Assembly (NCBI GenBank): GCA_033763895.1 | Contig: JANRJQ010000014.1 | Span: 68,926 to 132,925 of the forward strand | From: Chloroherpetonaceae bacterium | GTDB taxonomy: Bacteria; Bacteroidota; Chlorobiia; Chlorobiales; Thermochlorobacteraceae | Length of the DNA stretch: 64,000 nucleotides | Reading direction: 5' to 3' | In this document: one piece after another, positions 6,218-49,160 of the stretch | Numbering within the stretch: the stretch's first letter is position 1 | Layout of the letters: each line of letters starts with the position of its first letter | Position numbers and translations under genes: made by a program | The notes under the pieces: generated by a model | What the model saw: only the letters and a program-made list of their open reading frames with translations | Database searches by the model: none | What the model was told of the DNA's origin: nothing

Positions 6218-6478
6218 TTATTTATCGTAATGGAATCTACATTTTGCAATAAGAATTGAGTCTTTGGTTGGTTGGTAAATCAATCGATGCTCTTCATCGA
6301 TTCTTCTCGACCAAAATCCTTGATATTTATGCTTTAAGGGTTCAGGTTTTCCAATGCCTGTGTAGGGATTACGTGCGATATCTAAAATAATTTCGTTGAT
6401 TCTTTTAACCTTTTTTGGATCGGTCTTTTGCCAAAACAGATAGTCTTCCCAAGCTTCATCACTAAAAACATAATTCAT
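6218..6478 (-). CDS. yoeB: YoeB/Txe-family toxin
   Basis: 86 aa: FSDEAWEDYLFWQKTDPKKVKRINEIILDIARNPYTGIGKPEPLKH...WSRRIDEEHRLIY...HY. It overlaps the antitoxin gene by 4 nt. Confidence 0.9.
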   Translation of the reverse strand: MNYVFSDEAWEDYLFWQKTDPKKVKRINEIILDIARNPYTGIGKPEPLKHKYQGFWSRRIDEEHRLIYQPTKDSILIAKCRFHYDK

Positions 6479-6732
6479 TCAACTTCAATCAATTTTCTTC
6501 GCTTCCCTTTTCCTGCCTTTAACTTTTTAATTGCTCTGTCTAATCTTTTCTCATTTGTTTTGGACGAAAGTTCATACTGGGTTGCATTCAGTGCGTTGTA
6601 TTCCTCAAGAGAGATAACAACAACCCCCACATCCTTTCCTCGATTGATAACCAATGTCTCGTAGTCATCGGTTACCTTATCAAGGTACTTTTTAACATCC
6701 TTTCGAAAATCAGAAACCGTGGTTGTAATCAT
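6475..6732 (-). CDS. yefM: YefM/Phd-family antitoxin
   Basis: 85 aa with TVSDFRKDVKKYLDKV...LVINRGKDVGVVVISLEEYNAL. It sits directly upstream of yoeB. Confidence 0.85.
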   Translation of the reverse strand: MITTTVSDFRKDVKKYLDKVTDDYETLVINRGKDVGVVVISLEEYNALNATQYELSSKTNEKRLDRAIKKLKAGKGKRRKLIEVE

Positions 6733-6756: not shown

Positions 6757-6837
6757 TAAAATAGTTAGCAGCTTCTATACTTTCCAAATATCGATGTAGA
6801 GTACTTAAACCGTTGTTTAACTTTATTTTCGATAGTA

Positions 6838-6894
6838 ATCAATCACCCCGTATTCTTCATTCCTGCTGCGATTCCGTTCACGCTTGTGCGTAAA
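6838..6894 (-). repeat. Displaced duplicate of the ppc 3' end (last about 17 codons, the stop and 5 nt)
   Basis: About 57 bp match 7458-7514 with 5 mismatches. It translates to LLRTSVNGIAAGMKNTG*, against LLRASVNGIAAGMKNTG* in the intact gene. Confidence 0.85.
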
Positions 6895-6932
6895 AGCACG
6901 GGTACAACCCTACCCAATTCATCACTCGAATT

Positions 6933-7145
6933 TCAAACAGGATTTCCTAACCGAATTGATAAAGGGAGTTTTGGGTTCATTTGACTTACTTTGAGAATAG
7001 AAAACCCGATTATTTCCCCATTCATATTTACTTTTTCCATTATTGCATCATTCTCTGTTTCTCTAAAGAAACCTTTTTCCTTTTCAAAAAGTACTTCTAA
7101 GAAATCTGCCTCTTTGTCAAACCAAATTGTTATTTCTTTTTCCAT
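6933..7145 (-). CDS. DUF2283-family small protein (putative antitoxin)
   Basis: 70 aa: WFDKEADFLEVLFEKEKGFFRETEND...NGEIIGFSILKVSQ, the typical DUF2283 pattern. It overlaps the upstream ORF by 16 nt. Confidence 0.75.
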   Translation of the reverse strand: MEKEITIWFDKEADFLEVLFEKEKGFFRETENDAIMEKVNMNGEIIGFSILKVSQMNPKLPLSIRLGNPV

Positions 7146-7453
7146 AACTCTACCCCAGTCTTTATTTTATTGGTAAAATAAGTTGTTACAATAAAGTTAT
7201 CTTTATCACTTTTTTTTACAACAACACATAAATATTTACTCCCAACCTCAGTTTGTTTATACCACTTGTAGTACAACTCTATCTCACTGTCTGATTTTGA
7301 TAATGTTATCGAATCGGGATTCACTAATGTTTCTTCAATTAATGCGAAACTTTCTTGCAATTCGGGATGGTTTGTTTCAATGTGATTCCATCGTTCTTTT
7401 GAAAGTCTTATCGTGTGATTTCTCCTATCTACGAAAAAATGATTCTCATCCAT
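7130..7453 (-). CDS. Small putative toxin (DUF4258-like/RelE-barnase-like candidate) paired with DUF2283
   Basis: ATG at 7453 (MDENHFFVDRRNHTIRLSKERWNHIETNHPEL...VVTTYFTNKIK). The tracked ORF start at 7462 is a TTG abutting the ppc stop. The family assignment is tentative. Confidence 0.5.
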   Translation of the reverse strand: MDENHFFVDRRNHTIRLSKERWNHIETNHPELQESFALIEETLVNPDSITLSKSDSEIELYYKWYKQTEVGSKYLCVVVKKSDKDNFIVTTYFTNKIKTGVELWKKK

Positions 7454-7462
7454 AAATATCAA

Positions 7463-10342
7463 TCACCCCGTATTCTTCATTCCCGCCGCGATTCCGTTCA
7501 CGCTTGCACGTAAGAGCGTCAGCAAAGCCTTGCGCTGCTCATCTTCCGGCTCAAGAGCGCGAAACTGCTTCAACGCCGAAATTTGAATAAAGCTAATCGG
7601 GTCGAGATACGGATTGCGCAAGGTTATAGACTTTTGAAGCGTGAGGTCGTTTTCCAAAAGCGACTTTTGCTTGGTGAGCTCTAAAATGATTTTTTTCGTT
7701 CGCTCATATTCCCCTGAAATGACTTGCATCATACGCTCGGCATTGGCTTTATCGTGTGCGAGCTCCGCATACGAAGCCGCCACAAGCATATCCGATTTGC
7801 ATAAAATCATTTGAACATTATCAATCAGTGATTTGAAGAACCGCCACTTCTCATACATTTCTTGCAATGTTTCAAGCGATGTCCCCGCTTTCATTGCCGC
7901 TTCAATTCCCGAGCCCACGCCAAACCAATTCGGTAATGCTGCGCGGTTTTGCATCCACGAAAAAATCCACGGTATGGCACGCAGATCTTCAATACGCTTC
8001 TTCGCTCCGCGCCGTGCAGGCCGTGAGCCGATTTCCATTTGCTCGATGATATCAATCGGTGTGGCTTCTAAGAAAAAGGGCAAAAAGTCTTTATCGTCAT
8101 ACACCAAGCCTCGGTAAGCATTTTTAGCTTCCTCCGAAATCTTCGCCATTACGGTCTCCCACGCTTTAGGGTGCTTTGGCGAATGATGCTCAAGGCTCGC
8201 CACCATTACTGCAGAGACAATCCGTTCAAGATTCCGATTGGCGATGTGAGGCAATAAGTATTTGGCCGAGATGATTTCACCTTGCTCGGTGATTTTAATT
8301 TTTCCGTCAATCGTTCCCTCCGGCTGAGCCAAAATAGCTTGATGCACCGGCGCCCCGCCGCCGCGGCCGACCGTTCCGCCACGGCCGTGAAACAGCCGCA
8401 ATTTAATGCCGTAGTGTTCGGTAAGTGCCTTTAATCGGAACTGTGCGTTGTAAAGCTCCCAATTTGACGCAGCGACTCCTCCATCCTTGCTCGAATCGGA
8501 GTAGCCGATCATAATTTCCTGCACATTGCCACGGGCTTCCAAATGCTTACGATATACGGGGTTTTCAAAGAGCGATCGCATTAAGGTTTCGGAGCGTTGA
8601 AGATCGTCGATGGTTTCAAACAGTGGAACTATGGTTAAATCGCTTTCATATCCATCGTGGTCGTCTTGGCGTATCAAGGCAGCTTCTTTGGCGAGCAGCA
8701 AAACTTCGAGCACATGACTGGCTTTTTCCGTCATGCTGATGATGTAGCTTTGAATGGCTCTTGGAGAAATGAATTCCAATATTTTTCGAGCCTGACGAAA
8801 GACAGAAATGATTTCATTTGTTTCTTCACTAAAGGTCAGTTTGAAGGGAATCATTGGTCTTCGGCTATTGATTTCATTTGATAGCCACTTAATTTTTTCT
8901 TCTTCCGAGAGCTCTGAATATGATTTTGAAATTATCCTTAACTGTGCGGTGATTTCACCAATTGCCGTGGTATGCTTGGTGCTATGTTGCCGAAGATCGA
9001 GCGTTACGAATGAGAATCCAAAGATTTCTACTTGCCTAAGCATCGGTTCAAGCGTGTGCTTGGCAAGCCGAATTGTTTTAGGCTGCTTCAAACTTTTATA
9101 GATCACGCGAAGATCATCGATGTATTCCTTTTCTGAATGATAAGCATGCTCATGCAAATGATCTTTATCAACCGATTCAAGCGTACGCTGTAATCTGTAA
9201 TACATGTATCGGAGCTTAATCCGGTAGGCTTCGCTTCGATTCTTCCCCGCCCACTCTTTTTCAATATGTTCCTTTCCAATTACTTCATCATCTTTTTGAA
9301 TCGAGGCTAAGAGTTCATCAGAGACCTTCACTCTCGCGGTTGAAACACTAAGGCTCATAATGGCGGCTTCGAGTGACGCCAAGTATTTTTTGAGTATCAC
9401 GGTTTTGAGATAGCGCAAGGTTTCGCGCGTGACATCGTGCGTGACGAACGGATGCCCATCGCGGTCGCCACCCGTCCAAGAGTGAATCCGCAGAAATGGC
9501 GGAATGTGAAATTCAGCTTCGGGGTAATGCGCTTTAAGAGATTGCTCCAATTCGTGATAAAGCGCCGGGATAATCGGATAGAACACACGCTCGAGGTAGT
9601 ATAACTGACTTTGAACCTCGTCTTTCACCGTAAGTTTTGTAGATCGCGCTTCTTCAGTTTGCCATAACGAAGTAATTTGATAGTAGAGTTCTTCCATCAT
9701 TTCCATTCGTTCGCGCTCGCTGTGGTTTGGGTTATCGAGCCGCTCTAAAATGGTTGCAATATGACGCCGCTTCCGAAGAATGGTGTGGCGCAATGCCTCG
9801 GTGGGGTGAGCCGTAAGCGTGGGAAGAATTTCAAGATTTGAAAGGAGGGCTTTAATGTCATCTGCCTTTATCCCGCGCGATTTCAACCCGCGAATGGTTT
9901 CTTCAATTGCTCCCGGAAGAATATTCCCGCCTGCGGCTGCTTTGCGTTCGCGGCGAATAAAGTGATACATATCGGCCACATTGAGCAAATGAAAATATGT
10001 TCCGAATGCACGGATTAAATCAAGTGATTCTCTTTGGCTTAAGCCTTTAATGATTTCAGTGAGTGCCTTTACCCCACCATCAAATTGGTCTTGATTGGAG
10101 GATGACGGTGATTTACTTCGAAGATCTTTACAGAGCAGACGAATTTTTTCTTCTAACTCTAAAAATGAACTTCCTTCTTGCTCAGTAAGCACATCGCCCA
10201 AAATATTCCCGAGCATTTTCACATCATCGTGCAAGCGATTCTCGCCGTTTTGAAATAGATCATGTTGATGCGAGTCGATTTTCGCGCTTTGTTCTAAATG
10301 GCTTTGTGGAACAAGGATTTCAGGTTGGGTTTCTGTTTTCAT
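7463..10342 (-). CDS. ppc: Phosphoenolpyruvate carboxylase
   Basis: Contains the canonical motifs TAHPTE, GYSDSSKDGG, FHGRGGTVGRGGGP-like, and the C-terminal ...NGIAAGMKNTG. Start set to the ATG at 10342 (MKTETQ...), preceded by AAGGAG. The 42 upstream codons of the tracked ORF look spurious. Confidence 0.95.
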   Translation of the reverse strand: MKTETQPEILVPQSHLEQSAKIDSHQHDLFQNGENRLHDDVKMLGNILGDVLTEQEGSSFLELEEKIRLLCKDLRSKSPSSSNQDQFDGGVKALTEIIKGLSQRESLDLIRAFGTYFHLLNVADMYHFIRRERKAAAGGNILPGAIEETIRGLKSRGIKADDIKALLSNLEILPTLTAHPTEALRHTILRKRRHIATILERLDNPNHSERERMEMMEELYYQITSLWQTEEARSTKLTVKDEVQSQLYYLERVFYPIIPALYHELEQSLKAHYPEAEFHIPPFLRIHSWTGGDRDGHPFVTHDVTRETLRYLKTVILKKYLASLEAAIMSLSVSTARVKVSDELLASIQKDDEVIGKEHIEKEWAGKNRSEAYRIKLRYMYYRLQRTLESVDKDHLHEHAYHSEKEYIDDLRVIYKSLKQPKTIRLAKHTLEPMLRQVEIFGFSFVTLDLRQHSTKHTTAIGEITAQLRIISKSYSELSEEEKIKWLSNEINSRRPMIPFKLTFSEETNEIISVFRQARKILEFISPRAIQSYIISMTEKASHVLEVLLLAKEAALIRQDDHDGYESDLTIVPLFETIDDLQRSETLMRSLFENPVYRKHLEARGNVQEIMIGYSDSSKDGGVAASNWELYNAQFRLKALTEHYGIKLRLFHGRGGTVGRGGGAPVHQAILAQPEGTIDGKIKITEQGEIISAKYLLPHIANRNLERIVSAVMVASLEHHSPKHPKAWETVMAKISEEAKNAYRGLVYDDKDFLPFFLEATPIDIIEQMEIGSRPARRGAKKRIEDLRAIPWIFSWMQNRAALPNWFGVGSGIEAAMKAGTSLETLQEMYEKWRFFKSLIDNVQMILCKSDMLVAASYAELAHDKANAERMMQVISGEYERTKKIILELTKQKSLLENDLTLQKSITLRNPYLDPISFIQISALKQFRALEPEDEQRKALLTLLRASVNGIAAGMKNTG

Positions 10343-10489
10343 AGCGGTACTCCTTAGGTTAATTATTGGTTTCAATGTACGGATTGACCCATTGAGATTC
10401 AAAGCCGTTTCTATCTCTCTCCGAATCGAGTTTTCATTGTATTTTAGGATTAACTCGGTGGTTATCACCCGAAAATCTTAGGATCATCA

Positions 10490-11497
10490 ATGCCATATTC
10501 AAAACCTGCGGCCTCTGCGCCTTCATCAGTTGAAAAAGAAATTGCCAAGCTTCGCGACCGAATCAATCGTGAATTGATTACCGTTTTTCCGCAAACCCAG
10601 CCGAAGTCACTCTATGAACCGGCTCGGTATATCATCACCGGAAGTGGCAAACGCATTCGCCCAATTTTGGTGATTATTGGCGCAAAGTGCATTTCAAATA
10701 AAGTGGATGCGGTTATGCCCGTCGCTCTTGCCGTTGAAATTCTCCACAACTTCACGCTTGTGCATGATGACATTATGGATAAGGCCGACCTTCGCCACGG
10801 CCGCGAAACTGTTCACAAAAAGTGGGATATCGATACCGCCATTCTTTCGGGCGATGTCATGCACGCGATTTCCTATCAACTCATCACCCGCTCGAAAGTC
10901 AAAAATCCACTCCCAATTCTTGATTTGTTTCTTTCGGCCACCATTACCGTTTGCGACGGACAAGCCTTCGATAAAGAATTTGAAACCCGCCACAATGTCA
11001 CCTTGCCCGAGTACCTCACAATGATTGATTACAAAACAGGTCGCTTAATTTCAGCTGCACTTGAAATGGGTGGCCTTGCCGTCGGCGCAACCAGCATTCA
11101 AGCCAAAGCCCTGCGCGACTTCGGTAGTTCAATTGGCCGCGCCTTTCAAATTCAAGATGATTTATTAGATGTAATGGGCGGCGAAAAGTCGGGCAAAACC
11201 GTGGGCGGAGACATCATTGAAGGCAAAAAAACTTTTCTCCTCCTTAAATCTCTTGAGCTCGCCAAAGGTAAAGACCGAGCACTTCTTCAAACTGTAATCA
11301 AAGAAAAGGGCATTGATAAATCCCGCGTACCTGAAGTGAAGGCGGTCTTTGAAAAGTGTGGTGCAGTTCAAGAAGCCAAGAATGCTATCGAAACGGAATA
11401 CAATAAAGCCCTGAAACTTGCCTCTAAACTTCCCAATAAAGACGGCCGCGACATGCTGCTCGGCCTTGCGGCCTATTTGATGAAGAGAGACTATTAG
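10490..11497 (+). CDS. Polyprenyl diphosphate synthase (trans-isoprenyl diphosphate synthase family)
   Basis: 335 aa with FARM (LVHDDIMD) and SARM (IQDDLLD) aspartate-rich motifs. Confidence 0.9.
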   Translation: MPYSKPAASAPSSVEKEIAKLRDRINRELITVFPQTQPKSLYEPARYIITGSGKRIRPILVIIGAKCISNKVDAVMPVALAVEILHNFTLVHDDIMDKADLRHGRETVHKKWDIDTAILSGDVMHAISYQLITRSKVKNPLPILDLFLSATITVCDGQAFDKEFETRHNVTLPEYLTMIDYKTGRLISAALEMGGLAVGATSIQAKALRDFGSSIGRAFQIQDDLLDVMGGEKSGKTVGGDIIEGKKTFLLLKSLELAKGKDRALLQTVIKEKGIDKSRVPEVKAVFEKCGAVQEAKNAIETEYNKALKLASKLPNKDGRDMLLGLAAYLMKRDY

Positions 11498-11737
11498 GAA
11501 TTTTAGAATTGTGAGTTGCGAGTTAAGAAATAAGAGTTAAGGATAAAAGTCGAAATTCACCAAATAGGACATACCGAGATTTATGATGCTCGTCAAGCTC
11601 GCGATGCAGCGCGTCCGCAATCCTTCATGAAAAGAATTTTACGTTTCTTTTAATCCTCTTTTCTTTCCTTCTTTATTTCTCCCTTCAAAATTCTATATTT
11701 CATCGCCTGAATTTATTGCACATTAAACAAACCATTT

Positions 11738-13132
11738 ATGTTCCAATTTCTTGATCGTGAGCATTCTATTGCCCCGCCCAATTTCAATCGTTGGCTGTTT
11801 CCGCCGGCGGCACTTGCTGTTCATCTTTGCATCGGCCAAGTGTATGGTCTCTCCGTTTTCAACATTCCAATGACAAAGCTTATCGGGATTACAGAACCGG
11901 CAAAAGGGCTTGATTGGACAATTCCCGACCTTGGGTGGATATTTAGTATTGCTCTCGCAATGCTCGGGCTCTCCGCCGCCTTTTTTGGAAAATGGGTTGA
12001 GCTTTCAGGTCCAAGGAAAACGATGTTTGCATCTGCTATATGTTGGTCGGTCGGATTTTTTATCGGTGCGCTCGGCATTTGGCTGCATCAGCTTTGGATT
12101 GTGTATTTCGGTTACGGTGTCGTTGGCGGCATTGGGCTTGGACTTGGGTATATCTCCCCTGTTTCGACGCTGATGAAATGGTTTCCGGACCGCCCCGGAA
12201 TGGCCACGGGAATTGCGATTATGGGTTTTGGTGGTGGCGCAATGATTGGCTCTCCACTTGCCGTTGAATTGATGAATACCTTTAAAACGCCATCGTCAAT
12301 GGGCGTTTGGGAAACTTTTTTAGTGATGGGTGCCATCTATCTTGTCTTTATGCTTTTCGGTGCGTTTGCAGCACGTGTGCCTGCACCGGATTGGAAACCG
12401 GTCGGATTTAATCCCTCTGTGCTTCCCAAAAAATTGGTAACCTCAGCCAATGTGAGTGCCGATGCTGCAATTTCAACACCTCAGTTTTGGCTGCTTTGGG
12501 GGGTGCTTTGTATGAATGTCACGGCGGGAATTGGCGTTTTAGGTCAGGCTTCGCCGATGATTCAGGAAATGTTTCTTCTCAAAAAATTTCGCGATGCGGG
12601 CATGAGTGAAGCCGATGTGGTGAAAATGGCAGCCGCAGCGGGCGGCGGATTCACGGCTTTGCTTTCGCTTTTTAATTTGGTTGGTCGATTTTTTTGGTCG
12701 TCTCTTTCCGATAAGTTTGGGCGAAAGGTGAACTATATAATTTACCTCGGCTTAGGAACGCTGCTTTATGCGCTGATTCCAACAACCGGTCAACTTGGCA
12801 GCGTGGTGCTTTTTGTCGTGCTCTTTTCGGTGATTATGAGCATGTACGGCGGCGGATTCGCGACAATTCCCGCCTACCTGCGTGATCTCTTCGGCACAAT
12901 GCAAGTGGGTGCAATTCACGGGCGATTGCTCACGGCGTGGTCTGTTGCGGCGGTGCTTGGGCCGGTGCTGGTGAATTACATTCGGGAGTATCAAATTAGC
13001 GTGGGTGTCGCGAAGGCCGATGCCTATAACATCACGATGTACATAATGGCGGGGTTATTGGTCGTTGGGTTTATCTGCAATTTTTTGGTAAGGGAAGTCG
13101 CTGAAAAATATCATCATAAGGAGGTTATTTAA
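11738..13132 (+). CDS. MFS transporter, oxalate/formate antiporter (OFA) family
   Basis: 464 aa and polytopic. The N-terminus (NRWLFPPAALAVHLCIGQVYGLSVF) is typical of the OFA family. Confidence 0.85.
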   Translation: MFQFLDREHSIAPPNFNRWLFPPAALAVHLCIGQVYGLSVFNIPMTKLIGITEPAKGLDWTIPDLGWIFSIALAMLGLSAAFFGKWVELSGPRKTMFASAICWSVGFFIGALGIWLHQLWIVYFGYGVVGGIGLGLGYISPVSTLMKWFPDRPGMATGIAIMGFGGGAMIGSPLAVELMNTFKTPSSMGVWETFLVMGAIYLVFMLFGAFAARVPAPDWKPVGFNPSVLPKKLVTSANVSADAAISTPQFWLLWGVLCMNVTAGIGVLGQASPMIQEMFLLKKFRDAGMSEADVVKMAAAAGGGFTALLSLFNLVGRFFWSSLSDKFGRKVNYIIYLGLGTLLYALIPTTGQLGSVVLFVVLFSVIMSMYGGGFATIPAYLRDLFGTMQVGAIHGRLLTAWSVAAVLGPVLVNYIREYQISVGVAKADAYNITMYIMAGLLVVGFICNFLVREVAEKYHHKEVI

Positions 13133-13273
13133 ATGGAAAAAAATCTTCAATCACAACCGGAAGCGTCATCGTCACAAACCGTGAAACTTGTCCTTTACTG
13201 GCTCATTGTGGGTGTGCCCTCGCTGTGGGCGGTATGGCAAGTGGTGGTGAAATCGGCGGTGCTTTTTAAGTAA
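13133..13273 (+). CDS. MFS transporter small subunit (46-aa single-TM peptide)
   Basis: Not in the ORF track because it is under 60 aa. The ATG follows the MFS stop codon (13130-13132) directly. Sequence: MEKNLQSQPEASSSQTVKLVLYWLIVGVPSLWAVWQVVVKSAVLFK*. Small peptides of this kind directly downstream of OFA transporters are annotated as MFS small subunits. Confidence 0.65.
   Translation: MEKNLQSQPEASSSQTVKLVLYWLIVGVPSLWAVWQVVVKSAVLFK
13199..13273 (+). repeat. Copy 1 of the 75-bp small-subunit 3'-end repeat (part of the intact gene)
   Basis: tggctcattgtgggtgtgccctcgctgtgggcggtatggcaagtggtggtgaaatcggcggtgctttttaagtaa. Confidence 0.95.
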
Positions 13274-13321
13274 TAGCAGGATTAACTCGCATTAACCTAT
13301 ATCTTGATTTTATTCTTGACC

Positions 13322-13353
13322 AAAAAAAGGCGCATCTTAAATGCGCCTTTTCC
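13322..13353. terminator. Bidirectional rho-independent terminator
   Basis: aaaggcgcat-cttaa-atgcgccttt hairpin flanked by an A-run and a T-run, between convergent genes. Confidence 0.6.
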
Positions 13354-13371
13354 TTCTTTAAAGATCAAATT

Positions 13372-14814
13372 TTACTTGATAAGCATCATCTTTTTTGTTT
13401 CAGTGAACGACCCCGAGACCAATTTATAGAAGTAAATGCCCGACGCAAGATTGTTTCCATTAAAGGGAATCGTGTAAACACCTGCTTCTTTAACCCCATT
13501 TTCTAAAGTTGCAACTTCTCTTCCCAACAAATCATAAATCTTCAACTCAACCCGCGACGCAGACGGAATGTTGTATCGAATTGTGGTGGTTGGATTAAAT
13601 GGGTTCGGTGTGTTTTGCAACAACTCGAATTTTCTTGGCAAATTTTGAACTGTATTCTCAATCACTCTATCTCCAATGCCTATTGCAAATTCTCCAAATG
13701 CTGTTAAATCATTAACGATAACATTCGGGAAAATTTTCAATATGGTTAAGCGTTGAAATGCGCTCTCGACATTTTTCCACGCTGAGGTTTTATTTGGACG
13801 GTAAAGAATTTGTACTTTTTCTGCTGACGGATTGCCTTCAACTTCTCCAACATTCACAATGAGATTATATCTTAACCCTACCGTTGAAATGCTTCCTGTT
13901 TGTTCAATCACCCAATATCTTGAGTTGGAGAGCGATTCAATACCCGGAGGCAATGCGCCGACTAACGTAGGATTTTGTTCAATTGAGCCTCTAATTTGAA
14001 AGGTTGACTCCCGGTTTTGTGTCACATTCAACATAAACTCTTTAGAACCCAAAAGATATGCCCCGGTTTCATTTTGCCTTATTGTTGTGTTAGCATTATT
14101 ATCCTTAAGTGACACCAATTGGGTAAAGGGATCAAACGAAAAACTAAGTTGTGGTTCGTTTCCTGTGTTTATTTTTCTAATAACGAATGGAATCCTATTT
14201 CCACTTAGGCTTCCCCTAATAACCGAATTAAATTGCGTTAAATCAAAAGGATCACTCAACTTTGTACCGCCAATATATAATTCTTGAATAGTATTGTTTT
14301 CCGGGAAGGAGATATTTTCAATTGGAACGCCATCTACGATTACCATATTTATAGATGGAGCATTTCTTAGATCGACTTCTCTCAAAGGCATCTCTGAAAC
14401 CCAAAAACTAGTTAAACTTGGTTTATTTCCAAGCAGTAAAGTTTTCGCGTTTTTTAATCTCCAAACTTGAAGGAGCTGAATTTTTTCATTTTGAGTGAGA
14501 TCAATTTCCTCAACCAACCCATCTGATAAAGCAAATTGCGTCAACTCTTTGAATGCTTCAATTCCTTTAAAGGATCTAATATTTCTTGCTTCGTTTATTA
14601 CGAGAGGATCAAAAAACGATATGCTGGTTATATCACTAACCTTTGGATTAGTAAAGGTAACGGTTTGTGCTGCATCATCTTTCGTGACGCCTGTGAAGCT
14701 TTTTACAAGTACTTCTCTGAAATTTTGATCCTGAATACTGACCGTTTGGGCATTCAGCGAAATCGCGGAAGCCAGCAACAAAACAAAAAATGTATTTTTC
14801 ATCATATTCATCAT
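13372..14814 (-). CDS. T9SS-sorted leucine-rich-repeat surface protein
   Basis: Signal peptide (MMNMMKNTFFVLLLASAISLNAQ), LRR segments, and a C-terminal T9SS domain (PNPFNPTTTIRYNI...GIYFYKLVSGSFTETKKMMLIK). The start lies among several Met codons at 14802-14871. Confidence 0.8.
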   Translation of the reverse strand: MMNMMKNTFFVLLLASAISLNAQTVSIQDQNFREVLVKSFTGVTKDDAAQTVTFTNPKVSDITSISFFDPLVINEARNIRSFKGIEAFKELTQFALSDGLVEEIDLTQNEKIQLLQVWRLKNAKTLLLGNKPSLTSFWVSEMPLREVDLRNAPSINMVIVDGVPIENISFPENNTIQELYIGGTKLSDPFDLTQFNSVIRGSLSGNRIPFVIRKINTGNEPQLSFSFDPFTQLVSLKDNNANTTIRQNETGAYLLGSKEFMLNVTQNRESTFQIRGSIEQNPTLVGALPPGIESLSNSRYWVIEQTGSISTVGLRYNLIVNVGEVEGNPSAEKVQILYRPNKTSAWKNVESAFQRLTILKIFPNVIVNDLTAFGEFAIGIGDRVIENTVQNLPRKFELLQNTPNPFNPTTTIRYNIPSASRVELKIYDLLGREVATLENGVKEAGVYTIPFNGNNLASGIYFYKLVSGSFTETKKMMLIK

Positions 14815-15024
14815 TCGAGCAATTTGGGTTAAAAGAAAAAAGGCACAACAACTTTTATTAAACATAAACATTTTATTAAAAAGTTTTCATAAAAATTTTC
14901 TAACGCCGTTTTCTGTTATTTTTGTTTAATTAAAGACCTCTCTTGCAAGCATTACTGGAAAAATTGAAATGTGTTTAAGGTTTCACTAAAGGCCGCAAAT
15001 AAGTTTATAAGATAAGCAGAGAAT

Positions 15025-15099
15025 TGGCTCATTGTGGGCGTGCCCTCGCTGTGGGCGGTTTGGCAAGTGGTGGTGAAATCGGCCGTGCTTTTTAAGTAA
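15025..15099 (+). repeat. Copy 2 of the 75-bp small-subunit 3'-end repeat (truncated, no start codon)
   Basis: It encodes the identical 24 aa plus stop. The three differences from copy 1 are all silent. An in-frame TAA lies at 15013-15015 just upstream. Confidence 0.9.
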
Positions 15100-15141
15100 A
15101 AAAAATGGGGAATATCAATGCCCCACCTGATGAGAACGGGT

Positions 15142-15660
15142 TCACCGATTTAGAAAGTACTCTCGAAAATCTGCCATTTCTTTTCGCTCAAGCGCCACAT
15201 ATTTTTCAAAGATTTGTTTCCCAACTTGATGTTCCAACGCTGAGATCCCAACATCTATCAACCTTAAACCGGTGCTGGTGAGAAAAATATTATCAAAGGC
15301 TAATCCGCCGATATTAGACGGTCTTTTCAGATCGCGGTGTACAAATCCTGCTCGTTGTAACGCTGTCAATTCATCTTCGAACACTTCGACCCACAGTTCT
15401 CTTCTTTCAACTTCCTATGCTCTGAAATCAATCGGATAAAGCCGCCGCATAACAAGCATTTCTACTTGAATCGGTTCATTGAATTCTAATCGGAGAAATT
15501 TGACGACCAGATGATTAATCTCATTGGCAAACTTCATCTTTGCAGCTTCGCTGCCGATTTCAGAGCGCGAATCCCCAATAAATAATTTGCCAACTTCCGT
15601 GTCCCTTAAACCAATGACTGTATTATTCGCACCTGCTGAAAGTTTGCGTGGGTATTTCAT
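15142..15660 (-). pseudogene. Minimal protein-kinase-like gene interrupted by one in-frame TAG
   Basis: The two tracked ORFs (15415-15846 and 15142-15384) are in the same frame, separated only by a TAG at 15415-15417. The downstream half has the catalytic-loop-like FVHRDLKRPSN and LIDVG (DFG-like). The upstream half has SAGANNTVIG...VGKLF (G-loop/Lys-like). The likely ATG is at 15660. Confidence 0.55.
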
Positions 15661-15765
15661 TTTTTTCGCAAATGAAAAGTGAAATGCTTCGTGTTTATTA
15701 AAATCTCTGATTCCTAACTGAAATAAAATACCTAAACATGAATGTGAAACCTCAGACAAATAAAG

Positions 15766-15879
15766 ATGATGATGAGCCTTCACAAGGTGCAATTTGTGAT
15801 TTATTGGCTTATTGTGGGCGTGCCCTCGCTGTGGGCAGTATGGCAAGTGGTGGTGAAATCGGCGGTGCTTTTTAAGTGA
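15766..15879 (+). CDS. Possible second, shorter MFS-small-subunit-like ORF (37 aa) containing repeat copy 3
   Basis: MMMSLHKVQFVIYWLIVGVPSLWAVWQVVVKSAVLFK*. The last 24 aa are identical to those of the gene at 13133-13273. Homology extends a further 7 codons upstream (VQFVIYW vs VKLVLYW). No adjacent transporter gene. Confidence 0.35.
   Translation: MMMSLHKVQFVIYWLIVGVPSLWAVWQVVVKSAVLFK
15805..15879 (+). repeat. Copy 3 of the 75-bp small-subunit 3'-end repeat
   Basis: It encodes the same 24 aa. Differences from copy 1 are silent (ctt, ggc, gca) and the stop is TGA instead of TAA. Confidence 0.9.
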
Positions 15880-15897: not shown

Positions 15898-16962
15898 TTA
15901 AGTTTCTTTTTTAATCTCATTGATAAATTCAGAAATAGGTCTAACATAATCCTTTAAACCCACATGCTGGCTTGCGTATTTTAATTTTCTACTATTGTCT
16001 GGCAAGAAAAATATTTGCCTTTGTTCTCCGAGAAGAGTCAGTTTATCATCAGACAAATCCTCATCGAAGGTCACTACATGATAAATATATTTCACTTTAA
16101 ATCTGCTGAATATTTCTTTTGAACTGCTTATGTTCTTCCATCTTTCACGAAGGGTTCTTTTGCAGGATATTCCTATAACCCATCCATCTCTACATTTGAC
16201 CCAATTGTCAACTTCTAAATCTGCTTGAAAATGACTTGGTGCCTCTGCTCTACTAATGCCGTAATAATCAAGAATAAAATCTGTAACATCTTCTAAACTT
16301 CCCCCCGCTCGTGATTTTCTTTTTTGGCCTGCTCTCCGTTCGAATTCTTGACAAAAGGCAGTCAGAATAATGTCTTGATCATAATTACCAAGATTTAACT
16401 TATCATTAAGGAAAACTCTTAAAGAACCAAATGCTTTTATTATTTCTGTCCTTTCAGCATTCAAACAGCCCTTTACTCCTAAATCATCCCATAAATTAAT
16501 AATTGTTGCAAGACCAATTGAACCATTTATATCTAAAAAAGCCTTAGCAATCGATTCTGTATATATTTTATCATTACTTGGAATATTTGAAATTGCCTGA
16601 TTAAGAGGCATTACAACTTGTTCACAGGTTAAAATAAATGCACTCATTTCATCGTAAGTCTGAATATCATCATTTAAATCTTCCAATAATTTTTCAATTC
16701 TCATTTTTTTTGAGGAAGATTTTTCAAATTTTCTTCTCAAAATTTCGTTTAATGTCCTTTTTTGATGAATAAAAACTTCCGATTTATTCTTAAATGATTC
16801 ACTTATAATTTTTAAACTAGATGTTATCTCTAATAATAATTTGTTGTTTTTACCAATAGATCCATATTTATCACCACTTATTAGCATTCTTGAAAACCAA
16901 TAAACTTTATGCCAGTGATTTTGTAATTCTTCAATTACTGCCATTAAATTCCTCCATTTCAC
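15898..16962 (-). CDS. Type II restriction endonuclease candidate (PD-(D/E)XK-like), family not identified
   Basis: Last gene of a tightly overlapping M-M-R operon. Motifs: KRKSRAGGSLEDV and ADLEVDNWVK...ISCKRTLRERWKN. Very AT-rich. Confidence 0.6.
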   Translation of the reverse strand: MKWRNLMAVIEELQNHWHKVYWFSRMLISGDKYGSIGKNNKLLLEITSSLKIISESFKNKSEVFIHQKRTLNEILRRKFEKSSSKKMRIEKLLEDLNDDIQTYDEMSAFILTCEQVVMPLNQAISNIPSNDKIYTESIAKAFLDINGSIGLATIINLWDDLGVKGCLNAERTEIIKAFGSLRVFLNDKLNLGNYDQDIILTAFCQEFERRAGQKRKSRAGGSLEDVTDFILDYYGISRAEAPSHFQADLEVDNWVKCRDGWVIGISCKRTLRERWKNISSSKEIFSRFKVKYIYHVVTFDEDLSDDKLTLLGEQRQIFFLPDNSRKLKYASQHVGLKDYVRPISEFINEIKKET

Positions 16963-17710
16963 TGAATGTAATAAATGATCTTTCCTTAAATTCTAAAATC
17001 CTTTTTTCCGCCATTTCTACATATAGAGGTGACTTATCAATACCGATATAATTTCTTCCATTTATAATTGCTGCTAAAGCGGTCGTACCCGACCCAATAA
17101 ATGGATCTAAAATAAGTTTTGCTCTTGTAGATGAAATGATTCTGTCGATTAGAGCGACAGGGAAAGGTGCGGGATGAGCATTTTTCATTTCTTGTTTGAA
17201 TTCCCAAACGTCTCCAAAAGAATTAGCCTTTGGTAAAAGTTTAAATTTCGGTTTTGCAATCATATAGATTACTTCATATGTCGGAAGAAAATAACCGGGA
17301 TTAAAATTTATACCTCCCTTCCTTTTCCATATAATTATTTGACGAACTGGAAAATCCTTAACTATGTCTTCACGATCTTGCAGTAAACCGTCCTGCACAC
17401 GCCATTTGTGGTTATAAAAAATCGCCCCTTCATCGTTAATTAATCTCATCATTTCGGTCAAACATTCTCTTTGCCACTTTACATATTCATCATGTGGCAT
17501 ACAATCATCATGATGACTATAACCATTTACTAATGATGCATTTTTCCATTTACCGCCACGCCCATCTTTCATGCCGTTTCCTGTAGAATTTTTTAGGTTA
17601 TAAGGTGGTGATGTAACGACTAAGTCAATACTATTTGTTGGCAATTGTTTCATTATTTCTAAACAATCACCTACATAAATCTTGTTAAGATCTATTGAAT
17701 TATTTTTCAT
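16931..17710 (-). CDS. DNA methyltransferase, beta-class N4-C/N6-A type (SPPY motif)
   Basis: 259 aa. Motif IV is VVTSPPYNL and motif I is DPFIGSGTTALAA. The order IV then I indicates the beta class. Confidence 0.9.
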   Translation of the reverse strand: MKNNSIDLNKIYVGDCLEIMKQLPTNSIDLVVTSPPYNLKNSTGNGMKDGRGGKWKNASLVNGYSHHDDCMPHDEYVKWQRECLTEMMRLINDEGAIFYNHKWRVQDGLLQDREDIVKDFPVRQIIIWKRKGGINFNPGYFLPTYEVIYMIAKPKFKLLPKANSFGDVWEFKQEMKNAHPAPFPVALIDRIISSTRAKLILDPFIGSGTTALAAIINGRNYIGIDKSPLYVEMAEKRILEFKERSFITFSEMEEFNGSN

Positions 17711-18677
17711 AAAAATTTCTAACCTTTTTCAATTTAAATTTCAAACTATTCCTCTCCCAAAACACCCCATCCGCGAAGCCTTGAATACCCGTTTCCTTTT
17801 CAGCCAATTCCAAACGCTTTTCTGCCCAAACGCCATATTCCTCATTCAATTCAATCCCGATGTAGTTTCTCCCCAGTTTTTTTGCAACCACCGACGTTGT
17901 TCCCGACCCCAAAAACGGGTCAAGCACCACATCGCCCTTTTTGGAAGAGGCTAAGATGAGTTTCGCGATGAGCTTTTCCGGCTTTTGCGTGGGATGGTCG
18001 GTATTTTCGGGCATCGACCAATACGGCACACTGATATCATCCCAAAAATTAGAGGGAAATGTGATTCTGAAATTCCCGTCCTCGGTTTCTTCCCAATCTT
18101 TTGGCTTTCCGTCTATTTTATAAGGCGCAATCACTTTGCGTTTCATTTTCACGGCTTCGACATCGAAGTGGTAACTGTTTTTATCCTTTACCCCAAACCA
18201 AATGTCTTCCATCGCATTTTTCCAATTGCTTTGTGCGCCGCGTCCCTTTTCGCGCTGCCAAGTAATTCGGTTCATCACCACCAAATGCGCTTCCATTACT
18301 TCTTGCAGGGCGGCGGTGCACTTCCAATCGCCGCAGAGATACAGCGAGCCGGTATCTTTGAGCAGCCGAACGATTTGTGGAAACCACGTTCTTAAGTAGG
18401 CGCGATAATTTTCGGTATCCGTTTCTTTGAATTGAAACCCGTTGAAATTTTTGCTGAGGTTGTAGGGCGGGTCAAGAATGATAAGGTCAGCAATTTTTTC
18501 AGGGAGTTTTTCAACGATGGGGAGCATATCGCCGCATAGCGTATTGTTGAGAACAGCATCGAGAGATAGTTCACTTTCATCTTTCACCCGAACCAACTTC
18601 GAGGCGAAGCGTGGGTATTCCACGGCATCAACCGTAAGCGTTCGATTCCGCTCCGCTCTGATATTTTCGGTTTCCAT
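17700..18677 (-). CDS. DNA methyltransferase, beta-class N6-A/N4-C type (DPPY motif)
   Basis: 325 aa. Motif IV is ILDPPYNL and motif I is DPFLGSGTTSVVA. It overlaps the next methylase gene by 11 nt. Confidence 0.9.
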   Translation of the reverse strand: METENIRAERNRTLTVDAVEYPRFASKLVRVKDESELSLDAVLNNTLCGDMLPIVEKLPEKIADLIILDPPYNLSKNFNGFQFKETDTENYRAYLRTWFPQIVRLLKDTGSLYLCGDWKCTAALQEVMEAHLVVMNRITWQREKGRGAQSNWKNAMEDIWFGVKDKNSYHFDVEAVKMKRKVIAPYKIDGKPKDWEETEDGNFRITFPSNFWDDISVPYWSMPENTDHPTQKPEKLIAKLILASSKKGDVVLDPFLGSGTTSVVAKKLGRNYIGIELNEEYGVWAEKRLELAEKETGIQGFADGVFWERNSLKFKLKKVRNFYEK

Positions 18678-18766
18678 TTACTTTAATTGTTGTTAACGCT
18701 TAAGGGCAGTGTTCTAAAGCAGAATTTATTTCTCAAAACGCAACTTTGCAACAGCAAATTCTTGCA

Positions 18767-18926
18767 TGATAGAAGTGCATTCAGGATTCCGAACGCGTGT
18801 TGCTTGACTAAATGACCAACCAAAAGGCATGTCATTTCGAACGGAGCTTTAGCAGAGTGAGAAATCTCCAGTGCGCGGGGAATCGGAGATTTCTCACAGC
18901 GAACTTGACGAGCATCTTCAATCCTC
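18767..18926. repeat. Nested-palindrome dispersed repeat element (REP/MITE-like), copy 1
   Basis: The outer inverted repeat atgtcatttcga (18819-18830) / tcgaaatgacat (18915-18926) encloses the hairpin gagaaatctcc...ggagatttctc. Confidence 0.6.
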
Positions 18927-18944
18927 GAAATGACATACACTTCT

Positions 18945-19063
18945 ATTTGGTGGCTTGCAGGATTCCGGACAAGCCGGAATGACCAACCAATAGGCATGTC
19001 ATTTCAAACGAAGCAACGCGGTTTCAAGAAAGTTGGGAAATCTCAAGCGTGGGGAAGGTTGGA
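18945..19063. repeat. Same repeat family, copy 2 (diverged)
   Basis: caggattccg..atgaccaaccaa.aggcatgtcatttc.aacg.agc...gaaatctc...ggagatttct aligns with 18771-18887. Confidence 0.6.
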
Positions 19064-19314
19064 GATTTCTGACATTTTTTTGTTTTATCTCCGTGTGATT
19101 CGAGTACTTGCCTTGTGAACTTTGTGTTTTTAAATCCGAAACACGGAGGTCACTGAGAAAAACCACAGAGAGCACAAAGGATTATTGCGTCTTCGCGGCT
19201 TTGCGAGAAACAGTAGCCTCGTAAGGTGGTTTCAGCACTTCGAAAAGATTAGGGCGACACGGGCAAAAACACATAATCTCCTTGCGATATGGTAAGAAAA
19301 GGGAGATAAAAAAA

Positions 19315-20936: not shown

Positions 20937-21012
20937 ATGATTATTATTTAAAAATAATTACAATTTAATTTATTGATATTTCTAAGACTTTGAATTAAAA
21001 ACGGCAATCGAC

Positions 21013-21264
21013 TTCTGCTTGAATTATTTATACTCGAGTCTTCAAATTCACAACCTCTGTATCACATTTTCATACTCTTGTTACAAAAATAGTGACTGCT
21101 GTGTTTCTTTTTAATACGCAAGTCATAAAATCGATGACCGCTGTATTACATTTTCATACTCGTGTTACAAAAATAGTGACTTCTGTATTACTTTTTCATA
21201 CGCAATTCATTAAATTGACGACCGATGTATCAACTTTTCATAAAGTAATACTGTTAAAAATGGA
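21013..21264. repeat. Tandem array of six contiguous 42-bp units (84-bp higher-order period)
   Basis: Units start at 21013, 21055, 21097, 21139, 21181 and 21223. The consensus is roughly nnctgtattacnttttcatacncnngtnanaaaatngtgac. Units 1 and 3 match at 39/42, and units 2 and 4 at about 34/42. Confidence 0.9.
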
Positions 21265-21312: not shown

Positions 21313-21780
21313 TTATTTTGAATCGGATTTCCGCATCCCTTGTTTCTTAAACCTTGCTCCCATTTCCGTTACCATCGGTTTTAGTGAAGCGTTCTTTTTA
21401 ACGGCAAGTTTAAATTGGTTATAGATTGTATCCGCTTCAGCGCGCGCCTTATTCGCTGCTACCAAACGAAGGTCGTTGATGGTCTTGTGAACTTGCTCTA
21501 TTTGCAAGAGAAGCGACTCTGCCTGCGAGAACAGTTGCACGGCATTTTCAAATGAGGCTTTGTCGAAATCTGCTGGCATCACATTTGGAAATTGAGCTAC
21601 GGCACTTTGGCAGTCATTCAAATAATCAATGCTGCTATCGCCCACTTTTTTCAGTCTTTTGATTTCGACCGAAGAAAGCGTCGAGGTAAAACTTAGGCTG
21701 CTCGCAAGGTCATTGACCCTTTTCTGCAAAGAGGCAAATGCCTCATCAGAATACGCGGTTGGAACTGTAGGAATCGCCAT
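21313..21780 (-). CDS. Hypothetical protein (helical)
   Basis: 155-aa ORF with no motif recognised. Confidence 0.45.
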   Translation of the reverse strand: MAIPTVPTAYSDEAFASLQKRVNDLASSLSFTSTLSSVEIKRLKKVGDSSIDYLNDCQSAVAQFPNVMPADFDKASFENAVQLFSQAESLLLQIEQVHKTINDLRLVAANKARAEADTIYNQFKLAVKKNASLKPMVTEMGARFKKQGMRKSDSK

Positions 21781-22077: not shown

Positions 22078-25000
22078 TTACTTCACAAGCATCATTTTCT
22101 TTGTCGCGGTGTTTTTTCCGGAACGTATGGCGTAAAAATAAATACCACTCGAAAGCTGCGACGCATTGAACCGCGCCTCGTATTGCCCTGCTTCTTTGCG
22201 CTCATTGACAAGCGTTTGCACTTCGCGCCCCAAAATATCATACACCTTCAGCACCACAGCCCCGGCTTCGGCGATTTGATAGCGAATGGTGGTGGAAGGG
22301 TTAAATGGATTCGGGTAATTTTGATCCAATGAAAATTGATACGGCGTACGAACCGAAATCGGCTTGTGCTCCGTGGCCACACCGGAATAGCTCACATCAT
22401 AAAGTTTGTAGTGATACATCGTGCCGGGCTTTAGACTCCGTTCATCTTCGTATTGATAGGATTTTCCAACGGAAGCATTCCCTGCGCCGCGGAGTGCAGG
22501 ATGAGTACGGAAATCGGCAATGGTTTCATAAGGCCCCGATTCGGTGAGAGCGCGTTTCAATACATAGCCTTGATTATCCCGCTCGGAGGCCGTTGCCCAC
22601 TGAAGTGAAATTTTCGTTTCAGTTGCTTTCGCTGTAAACGAAGTCAGTTCAACGGGTAGTGGGTTATCGCCTAAGGTGCCGATGGCAAACTCGCCGAGCA
22701 ATGACATATTCTTTGCAATCATATAATTTCCTTTGAAGTCGAAAATCACAAAGCCGTAGTCATTAACACTTTCCCAAAATGCCGTTTCATCATCGCGGCG
22801 AAGCAGTTGAAGAGTACTTATGTTGGTAACACCTGTGATGGGTGTAAGATCAAGAACGAGGTCGAAATTCATCGTATAGCTTGGCGTGGTGAGGCTCCAA
22901 TATTTATCGGCAGAAATTCCCGGAACCCCTAAAGGCAATGAGCCATTGATGGTTGGGGAGACTCCGGCGAAAGTCGTGAGGGGAATATCGCCACCATTTG
23001 AGTTGATTGCCACACGAATGATAGCCCCAGTTTTGCCAATGATAAACCCGCCCGTTTGCCCATCGAGGATGGTTGGGTTAATAATTTCAGAGCGCAAGAA
23101 ATCGGTAATTGTCCCGAAATCAACTTGTAAAGTTGTTGGTGCTGGGTCGGCTGTTAATACAATTGCAAGAGGATTATCTTCTGCACGGAGGTTATCTAAT
23201 AACGGGTTTGCCCCTGTGTTTAACACATTCAACAAATTAAACTCACAGTTCAACCGATTAAGAAGCGGTAAATCGCTGAGGTCTAATTCGGTAAGTTGGT
23301 TATCATAACAATATATTTCTTCAAGTAAGGGATTTTGTGAGAGATCAAGCGATGTTATTTGATTTTCATGACAATCCAACACTCTTAAAAATGGATTGCC
23401 TGAAGTAACCAAAGTGGTAAGAGAATTATCTCCAATGTTTATGGATTCCAAACGAACAAAGGCTTCAAGCCCTGTTGAATTTACTATGCCACTAAAACCT
23501 AATGATAAGTCTGTAATTGCCGCGGCTGCTGAAGGATTGGTGATAAAATTTGCTCCGTCAAAAGTGATTCCATAATCGGCTGCTAATTTATTTCTAAAGT
23601 TTTCATCAGGCACTTCTCTTGGTCCGATTTTATAAGATGCCGGAGCTGTATCAAAAAAGGTCGTAACTGAACCGGAAGGAAAAGGCAAGGCTGAAACCGT
23701 TAAGAAAAAAGGCGTGGGATTTCCTTGGATATCCAATGACTCAAGAACCGTATTGGGTGTAATATCTAACTCGGTAAGTTGATTATTAAAGCACGCCAGT
23801 TCGATAAGCCCTGTAGCGGGCGATAAATCCAAAGTGGTCAGTGGATTATCGTTGCAGATTAAGTTGGTTAAGGTGGAAGTGCTTGGAAGCGTGAGCGAGG
23901 TAAGTGAATTGAAACTGCAATCCACAAGTTGCAATGTTGTGTTATCCGTTAGATTGAGAGTTGTTAAAGCATTGTATTGGATACGCAAATCAGATAACGA
24001 CGAAAGTCCGGTTAAGTTTACGGAAGCGATATTACTTTCGCTACAGCGAAGGGTCACCAAATTCGGATTTCCGGTGAGGTCAAGGGTTGTTAAATCGGTA
24101 TTGTTGCCATACAGCAATGTAAGGGCAGAAAGCATTGAAACATCAATCGATATGATTGGGTTTGTCCCAAAATCCAAGTAAGTAAGTGCTGTATTGGAAC
24201 TGACATCAAGGCTGGGTAAAAGATTATTTGGGCAGCGAAGATCATTGAGCGCTGTCAAGGTTGAAACATCAATGGAGGTAAGGTCATTATCGCCGCAAGC
24301 TAAAAAAGTAAGATTCGGATTGTTCAGTGTTAATGTGGTTAAATCGTTCAGCGAGCAATCTAAGTAAGTGAGATTGGCGTTTGAGGAAACATCTAAAGAA
24401 GTTAAAAGATTAGCAGAACATCTTAAGTTAGATAAATTTGAATTTGATGAGACATCAAGGGTATTTAAAGAATTTCCCGCACAGAACAATGTCCCTAAAG
24501 TGCTTGTTGAAGGAAGCGTAAGCGTAGTTAAGTCATTATCATGAGCATAAACTTCAATAAGCGCAGTGTTTGCCGATAAGTCTAGTGATGTTATCGAATT
24601 GACTTGACAGGAAAGTGTTTGTAATAAAGGGTTATTGCTGAGATCTAATGAAGTAAGTGCATTTCCAGAACAGTATAAAAGTTGCAATGAGGGTAACATT
24701 GAAAGATCTAAAGAAGTTAGAAGATTGACATCACAGCCTAAAACTCCTAAAGATGTGTTTCCACTCAAATCAAGTGTAGTAAGATAATTATAGTCACAGT
24801 AAAGTGTAATAAGACCTGTGAAGAGCTTAATACCTGTCAAATCAAGAATGTTTGAATCGCTAACATCTAGTTCATTAATCCCCGCCACAAACGGCAAATT
24901 GGTTACCCTATTGCTCATATTGAAGGTTACGCCTTCTGCAATCAATGCCGTGCGGAAATTGGCATCGGGCACTTCAAGGTCGCTGCCCAAGTATTTGATG

Positions 25001-28008: not shown

Positions 28009-28177
28009 AAAATGAAATTTGTTGCACTTTTGTTGGTTTCTTGATATATCAATATAGAATAATTTCAACTCCATAAATGCCGTTTTTTTCGAAACTTGAC
28101 ACTTTTTTAGCGCAAGTTGTTTGCATTATCTCATTTTCACCAACCCTTTTTCAATGGGTTATTGATCATTTCCAGTC

Positions 28178-30661: not shown

Positions 30662-30697
30662 GGATATCGTAATTTGATTTCTAAAAAATCGAATCGT

Positions 30698-31402: not shown

Positions 31403-31535
31403 AGTCGATAAATAGTTTTGGATGATAGTGATGCTGACTGCCGAAGGTTTTTTAGGGAAACTGCCTTTACCTCGATCCGGATACAACGATGATAATGTAT
31501 GTTTGTAAAGGAATCTAAGGGAAAATTTTACAATC

Positions 31536-48977: not shown

Positions 48978-49070
48978 GATTCAGATTATTTAGCCATTCA
49001 ATCAAGGTTTAAGAGATTATTTAGCGCCCCTTGTCAGGTTTGAGATGAAACAACTCATTTCATCGAAATA

Positions 49071-49099: not shown

Positions 49100-49160
49100 A
49101 TTCGAACCCGATTCAATAATCGGCCGAGAATTTACAATCCGCAAAAGAATGCCGGATGGA

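Follow-up and report, generated by a model that had tools for sequence, protein, structure and literature searches.

Insertions that pile up in tandem at the 3' ends of protein-coding genes, supplying the gene with a replacement end, are already a known general phenomenon; integrase-less insertions bounded by long, variable direct repeats are known as well, though they remain unexplained. The locus described here lies in a 64,000-nucleotide stretch (the window) of a metagenome-assembled genome of a Chloroherpetonaceae bacterium (GCA_033763895.1, contig JANRJQ010000014.1, forward-strand positions 68,926 to 132,925). The end of a gene encoding a small subunit of a major facilitator superfamily (MFS) transporter is present there in three direct copies that separate two short cassettes, and the end of a second, unrelated gene is duplicated nearby. 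Unusual features are the very small, cargo-only units, the involvement of two unrelated gene ends within 6 kb, the clean silent-only signature of divergence among the repeats, and a host from the sparsely sampled Chloroherpetonaceae lineage. An earlier reading of the locus (the original prediction) took the phenomenon to be undescribed; that claim does not hold, as accretion of cis-mobilizable elements (CIMEs) and of elements that are both integrative and mobilizable (IMEs) (PMC5704250) and "target duplications" around restriction-modification (R-M) genes (PMC2853133) have both been published.

Integrative and conjugative elements (ICEs), IMEs and CIMEs accrete in tandem at the 3' ends of housekeeping protein genes, for example ICESt1/ICESt3 and CIMEs at fda in Streptococcus thermophilus (PMC5704250). 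As at the present locus, successive insertions at the same site build arrays, some units lack an integrase, and newer units adjoin the gene. Those arrays are the work of tyrosine or serine integrases that have been identified and that use a fixed att core, and their units are usually several kilobases in length, whereas here the units measure 0.55-1.75 kb, the repeats are variable, two unrelated tails are involved, and no recombinase was seen. No integrase, transposase or other recombinase was detected in any cassette or among the 40 distinct open reading frames (ORFs) of the window scanned against Pfam, a scan that took in every ORF of at least 120 amino acids between 5.4 and 22 kb except a 1998-residue leucine-rich repeat (LRR) ORF; a tyrosine or serine recombinase in or beside the array was thus not among them.

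The tycheposon islands of Prochlorococcus (bioRxiv 10.1101/2020.12.28.424599) are likewise divided by repeated partial 3' ends of the target gene, and in them the older units, which decay, are driven further inward as new ones arrive; they differ in targeting mostly tRNA genes and in carrying recognisable integrases and replication modules. Integron arrays are similar in being serial, promoter-poor cassettes of one or two genes, often toxin-antitoxin modules, split by a repeated element. In contrast to integrons, the repeats here are coding gene ends and cassette orientation varies between the two loci; no attC-like folding of the repeats was found (DNA folding z-scores of -1.4 to +0.1), there is no intI or attI, no integrase was found, and an Rfam search returned nothing above the gathering score.

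Published insertions of R-M genes come with "target duplications" that are long and variable, and carry no mobility genes (PMC2853133). As here, those inserts are small and free of mobility genes, their direct repeats are tens of base pairs long and single-copy elsewhere, the repeats are imperfect (e.g., 44/46 and 60/65), and the cargo is selfish or defensive; such insertions are known mostly from naturally competent species. The present inserts (551, 705 and 1751 bp, with repeats of 69-93 nt) agree with the definition used there (insert <20 kb, no mobility genes, direct repeats >30 bp). However, the R and M genes that should lie within the flanked insert are not there: the R-M cluster comes after the last repeat, and the flanked inserts encode a protein sorted by the type IX secretion system (T9SS), a kinase-like pseudogene and a toxin-antitoxin pair. 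The repeats are, moreover, gene ends, and their silent-only divergence indicates that they did not arise by in-place duplication of a target. A short shared segment is also duplicated around an insert, with no dedicated recombinase, in Campbell-type integration of recircularised plasmid fragments in E. coli, where a single crossover experimentally gives 109-950 bp duplications (PMC3240628); this is mainly a laboratory outcome and has not been described as a natural builder of gene-end cassette arrays. Homology-facilitated illegitimate recombination typically yields an insertion plus a deletion (PMC3240628).

Duplicated gene tails in the window

In a repeat search of the window, the 75-nt tail of the small-subunit gene turned up exactly three times, always in direct orientation, at 13199-13273, 15025-15099 and 15805-15879, precisely where the copies had been predicted. 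A 32-mer search allowing up to three mismatches gave three matches, against none expected from 100 shuffles, and a profile search of the whole 64 kb found no fourth copy, degenerate copies after the R-M cluster included. All three copies translate to WLIVGVPSLWAVWQVVVKSAVLFK*, 24 residues and a stop. They vary at six sites: positions 6, 15, 33, 36 and 60, all third codon positions, and position 74, which distinguishes TAA from TGA. Thus all six differences are silent, as the original prediction had it; with a chance of silence of 0.27 per random substitution in this segment, the probability of that outcome is 3.9e-4 (0.07 for the two silent changes of copy 2 taken alone). Under a model of in-place duplication, in which one copy is constrained and the other neutral, a difference is silent with probability 0.425, and six of six silent differences have p = 0.006; adding the second duplicated tail described below (10 of 11 silent) gives p = 0.0013.

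The simplest reading is that each tail diverged as a working gene end in a separate, closely related lineage and that the tails were then joined by recombination. Because all six differences are silent, the tails would have evolved as the ends of working genes, not as drifting orphans, a conclusion that the original prediction had drawn and that the statistics uphold. The repeats would then be gene ends supplied by donors rather than target duplications. The donors were probably close relatives, since the three tails have in common codon choices that differ in every other species compared.

Copy 1 is the working end of the gene. An OFA/L-lactate-type MFS transporter gene of 464 codons (11738-13132, plus strand; NCBIfam SfMCT 1.8e-91 and OFA family matches; host-like GC of 49%) is followed, from the base after its stop codon, by the intact 46-codon small-subunit gene (13133-13273, plus strand), whose last 24 codons and TAA form copy 1 (13199-13273, plus strand). 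The small ORF matches NCBIfam NF047966 "MFS transporter small subunit", a domain of 31 positions, with 26.5 bits against a curated cut-off of 24. Copy 2 (15025-15099, plus strand) is truncated exactly at codon W23. It lacks a usable start codon, an in-frame TAA stands 9 nt upstream of it, and its score of 17.7 bits is under the cut-off. Copy 3 had been predicted to be a mere 75-bp end and proved to be more than that: 93 nt (15787-15879, plus strand) are homologous to 13181-13273, and they lie within a domain-complete small-subunit reading frame of 37 codons (15766-15879, plus strand; ATG start, TGA stop) that just clears the cut-off (24.3 bits). The additional 18 nt on the 5' side (from 13181/15787) contain five differences, three of them replacements, and are therefore far more diverged than the last 75 nt (5/18 or 28% versus 4/75 or 5%; Fisher p = 0.012). 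Two of the replacement residues, Q and I, also occur in orthologues of other species, as would be expected for a real gene of another lineage.

Only copy 1 stands directly downstream of an OFA-type MFS gene; copies 2 and 3 do not. Copies 1 and 3 have an exact 40-mer in common, and the longest exact match of copy 2 to the others is at most 26 nt. On the right, the repeats all finish together at the stop codon (within about 1 nt). On the left they do not agree: copy 2 extends over 75 nt and copy 3 over 93 nt, and divergence rises abruptly at the 75-nt mark. Between the copies lie cassette 1 (13274-15024; 1751 bp, GC 36%), which contains a hairpin resembling a bidirectional terminator (13325-13351), and cassette 2 (15100-15804; 705 bp, GC 40%). 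The inserts are thus placed between direct copies of a gene-tail segment, the repeats include the 3' end of the target gene, and the gene is kept intact. GC content is 46-49% in the flanking core genes, 46-56% in the repeated tails and 31-40% in the cassettes, with a window mean of 42.7%; the cassettes are foreign in composition, while the tails are host-like in GC and codon usage.

Relatives were sought with the MFS protein in genome contigs, with a degenerate tail pattern in metagenomes, and with the small ORF among proteins. The small subunit is single-copy in four metagenome contigs and in about 80 other genomes of many phyla, and in nearly all of them it lies directly after the MFS gene. 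The tail, too, is single-copy in all other genomes compared, which are distant and not syntenic: the nearest in the collections searched have 84-85% identity in the MFS protein and 73-76% in DNA, and the operon has no syntenic neighbourhood in them. A terminator lies at most about 25 nt past the small-subunit gene in the closest relatives. The 26-kb contig of the second-closest relative (JBDNCJ010000048.1) stops 242 nt past its small-subunit gene; a repeat or strain-variable region may begin at the same place there.

A second duplicated tail was located about 5 kb from the MFS site, at the gene for phosphoenolpyruvate carboxylase (ppc; 7463-10468, minus strand, 1001 codons). Copy A, the functional tail (7449-7517, minus strand), consists of the last 17 codons, TGA and about 14 nt past the stop. 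Copy B, an orphan 620 nt downstream (6829-6897, minus strand), encodes LLRTSVNGIAAGMKNTG*. In the whole-window repeat search the two were 87% identical over 69 nt, and their coding parts differ by four silent changes and a single replacement; the right end of the repeat lies about 8-14 nt beyond the stop codon. Between them is a cassette of 551 bp (6898-7448, minus strand, GC 32%) with a toxin-antitoxin-like pair, a PBECR2 nuclease-like ORF (7133-7453) and a DUF2283 ORF (6933-7145), both on the minus strand. A YefM/Phd antitoxin (6475-6732; Pfam 6.8e-16) and a YoeB toxin (6218-6478; Pfam 2.3e-37), also on the minus strand, come after copy B. Cassette orientation differs between the MFS and ppc loci, and no motif common to the ppc and small-subunit tails was found (the alignment score equals the shuffle mean). 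Because the ppc tail has the same layout, the duplicated-tail architecture is not peculiar to a tiny peptide gene. The original prediction had named such a gene as an accretion site with no integrase nearby; the absence of a recombinase was borne out among the ORFs scanned, but the special nature of the site was not.

How the cassettes may have been joined

The layout fits the predicted repeated integration at the 3' end of the small-subunit gene. We infer the cross-lineage origin of the tails, the order of events and the kind of recombination from the sequence. Our preferred explanation, to which we give a probability of roughly one half, is a tandem array of small, cargo-only cassettes built by successive insertions at this 3' end through homology-driven joining, of the Campbell type or equivalent. 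The reconstructed course of events would be as follows: incoming DNA from a closely related lineage (synonymous divergence roughly 0.15-0.3) would bring the donor's own working gene tail beside its cargo, and would be joined to the chromosome by recombination within the tail. As recombination inside the tail would supply a working end, the small-subunit gene would stay intact, and the earlier tail would be displaced downstream as an orphan. The joining step would most likely be homology-driven, a RecA-type single crossover of circularised imported DNA; a homology-anchored event during natural transformation would be an equivalent route. A cassette flanked by two tails could afterwards loop out as a circle and re-enter any genome bearing the tail. 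Read from newest to oldest, the order would probably be cassette 1 with its T9SS protein, then cassette 2 with its decayed kinase-like gene, then copy 3, left over from a small-subunit gene that was resident earlier, with the R-M neighbours of that gene behind it.

We regard a dedicated integrase as less likely than a homology-driven single crossover. The original prediction had left the choice between site-specific and Campbell-type insertion open; the repeat lengths (69, 75 and 93 nt) and the lack of a shared motif lean towards homology and suit a single sequence-specific recombinase less well. The homology route is also favoured by the cassettes themselves, four of 0.55-1.75 kb of which none has a recombinase and three have intact cargo genes, and by the host-like composition of the tails. 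By analogy, it is favoured by two further observations: long target duplications cluster in naturally competent species (PMC2853133), and Chlorobaculum tepidum, a member of the same order, is naturally transformable (PMC5473272).

Several points weigh against this explanation. Movement of the cassettes is deduced rather than seen, as no empty, single-cassette or circular state was observed, and the collections searched hold no relative closer than 84-85% in MFS protein identity. All three MFS repeats finish no more than about 1 nt from the stop codon, and the ppc repeat about 8-14 nt past it, a regularity typical of the gene-end copies in the attP of integrase-borne elements; homology alone predicts such a boundary only under a further assumption, for instance that selection kept the gene intact or that the boundary was inherited from donor arrays. 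The three orphan repeats are short (52-93 nt coding), and random circularisation predicts otherwise unless longer repeats are lost quickly. The origin of the first tail-flanked cassette has no account in a homology model. Finally, competence of this host is an assumption, and a recombinase could be encoded outside the 64-kb window.

Site-specific accretion is a rival explanation that we consider possible but on balance unlikely. The cassettes would be decayed CIME-like remnants or integrase-less satellites whose attP mimicked the gene's 3' end, inserted serially by tyrosine or serine recombinases since deleted or acting in trans from elsewhere. Tandem arrays that include integrase-less CIMEs are documented (PMC5704250), and tycheposon arrays split by partial tRNA copies work in a like manner (bioRxiv 10.1101/2020.12.28.424599). 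Right-hand boundaries at the stop codon are expected if only the coding part of the attP was kept; the uniformly short repeats and the decay of cassette 2 are consistent with such a history, and silent-only divergence also fits an attP copy that turned into the working gene end at each integration. However, none of the four cassettes, nor any other window ORF tested, encodes a recombinase, and at 0.55-1.75 kb, with cargo intact in three, each cassette would need a clean loss of its integrase. Repeat length varies within one site (75 versus 93 nt), the two unrelated tails, which have no motif in common, would require two different recombinases, and in GC and codon usage the tails resemble the host and not an element. 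Searches of viral contigs, plasmids and phages returned no copy of the tail; only the methyltransferases of the R-M cluster have distant matches there.

A broader version of the homology-driven explanation is more tentative still, and we regard it as doubtful. The last 50-100 bases of ordinary genes in this lineage might serve as portable "handles" of homology, by which cargo-only cassettes loop out and re-insert through general homologous recombination after DNA uptake: an analogue of the integron, free of a recombinase and operating at many gene ends, which could also underlie "insertion with long target duplication". If so, the cargo so carried would be toxin-antitoxin and R-M genes and surface proteins.

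Other origins of the repeats, and the assembly

In-situ "long target duplication", in which a cassette inserts by an unnamed mechanism, duplicates 69-93 bp of its target and leaves the copies to diverge in place, is improbable. Copy 3 may be translated and hence constrained, and the two silent changes of copy 2 are by themselves not significant. But orphans formed in this way should gather mostly replacement or nonsense changes, contrary to the tests given above for the six tail differences and for the 11 with ppc added. Furthermore, the strong divergence of the 5' 18 nt of copy 3 relative to its tail, with orthologue-like residues, is unexpected for a recent duplicate.

Still less probable is the retention of copy 3, and perhaps copy 2, as extra working paralogues, functional small peptides whatever their insertion history. 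The ORF of copy 3 does have a start codon and a score above the NF047966 cut-off, and all of its tail differences are silent. Against this, copy 2 lacks a start codon and is closely preceded by an in-frame stop, the subunit is single and adjoins its MFS gene in the roughly 80 other genomes, and the orphan ppc tail cannot be a functional protein; the bracketing of foreign cassettes by the repeats would also be left unexplained.

Any array of repeats in a metagenome-assembled genome is open to the suspicion that the assembler strung together strain variants with different genes 3' of the small ORF. The window was checked against independent Logan contigs of two sequencing runs. One contig (L094, DRR729080) is 100% identical to 13242-15867 and so runs from cassette 1 through copy 2 and cassette 2 to the beginning of copy 3; another (L001, DRR729082) is 100% identical to 12788-13930, crossing copy 1 and so linking the MFS gene to cassette 1; a third (L002, DRR729080) is 100% identical to 10101-13261; and a fourth (L092) spans the entire ppc array at 100% identity. 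The end of L002 and both ends of L094 fall exactly 30 nt into the 40-mer common to copies 1 and 3, and breaks inside this 40-mer are the behaviour of a k=31 graph at a true repeat. A short-k graph by itself also permits a 2.6-kb circle together with a direct join of MFS to R-M; no circle was demonstrated, and L001 displays the integrated left junction, unlike the circle reading. The junction from copy 3 to the R-M cluster is the sole array junction for which no independent contig was found. Copy 2 cannot be a graph collapse, because its exact matches to the other copies are at most 26 nt. The array is correctly assembled; despite its metagenomic source, the contig breaks at the 40-mer, the one uncovered junction and the permitted circle, we give an artefact hardly any weight.

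Silent donor cassettes for antigenic variation and shufflon-like alternative ends were ruled out, because the copies encode identical residues and all lie in direct orientation.

Cargo, neighbouring features and implications

Cassette 1 carries a single gene on the minus strand (13372-14805; 477 codons in the NCBI annotation). The original prediction had called its product a T9SS LRR protein: the T9SS assignment stands (Pfam Por_Secre_tail, 6.4e-10), while the LRR does not, as Pfam matched only the C-terminal T9SS sorting domain. Outside this domain the protein is an ORFan, with only a self match among 5.8 billion proteins.

The predicted kinase-like pseudogene of cassette 2 was confirmed on the minus strand (15142-15660, 172 codons); its Tyr82 is replaced by an in-frame TAG (15415-15417), standing where all homologues have Tyr. 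Its family comprises 2474 relatives, and among the best 120 of these nearly all are exactly 172 residues long and 72-79% identical. Members with names come from Cytophagaceae and Ignavibacteria. No Pfam model covers the family, and PADLOC matches to PD-T4-6 are weak. In other genomes (five loci, L087-L091) the gene is clustered with genes for DUF2130, Bro-N, 73-residue and 718-residue proteins; this cluster is possibly a mobile defence module.

After copy 3, with no fourth tail closing it, comes a probable type II R-M cluster (15898-18677, minus strand; Pfam and PADLOC). It consists of a restriction endonuclease-like ORF with a weak match (15898-16962, minus strand) and two N6/N4 methyltransferases with strong matches (16931-17710 and 17700-18677, minus strand). 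Next to it is a gene-free stretch of 640 bp (18678-19314) with a higher GC of 43%. It contains two 37-nt copies that are 92% identical (18811-18847 and 18978-19014), and after each of them comes an inverted repeat that resembles a hairpin (GAGAAATCTCC...GGAGATTTCTC). The stretch has no Rfam match above threshold and may represent a small RNA or an extragenic element of the repeated kind. In a low-GC intergenic region at 21010-21261, upstream of a 155-residue ORF (21313-21780), a 42-nt unit (GAC..CTGTAT.AC.TTTTCATAC...) is present in about six tandem copies.

A minus-strand ORF of 1998 codons (22078-28074) has a T9SS-type C terminus and internal tandem repeats of 147 and 294 nt (26360-27885), and shows LRR-like similarity to a protein downstream of the MFS operon in another of the loci compared (L003). 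Adjacent genes for an Lhr-type helicase (827 residues) and an ATP-dependent DNA ligase (547 residues) lie within 28178-33179, a repair pair of possible relevance to end joining or recombination in the host. Three clustered paralogous CarboxypepD_reg/TonB_C proteins (286, 313 and 313 residues) are encoded at 48117-51406, with an inverted repeat (49228-49273 and 51297-51342) around which two of them face one another. Within 968-2859, close by, are genes for a Uma2-family endonuclease (968-1534) and for an AbiEii/DUF6036 nucleotidyltransferase (2302-2859), and this part of the chromosome appears rich in addiction- and defence-type cargo.

A crude screen for tail duplicates in 1.44 Mb of unrelated loci yielded mostly paralogues and internal repeats. 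In an alphaproteobacterial locus (L065), a 74-nt stretch that includes an ORF end (13496-13569) recurs in direct orientation, 971 nt away and 96% identical, at 14540-14613, and may be another gene-tail duplication.

Silent-only divergence of repeats provides a simple sequence test of donor-supplied ends versus in-place duplication, and could be used on whole genomes. Should an integrase act in trans instead, the locus would be another case of CIME-like accretion, in the poorly sampled family Chloroherpetonaceae. If the homology-driven explanation is true, tiny defence and addiction cassettes would spread among related strains with no mobility gene of their own, a conserved gene end serving as the landing pad and the cassette bringing along the replacement end. 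Such a process would provide a concrete mechanism for the unexplained "long target duplications" around R-M genes, and would explain how flexible islands grow beside core genes without integrases.

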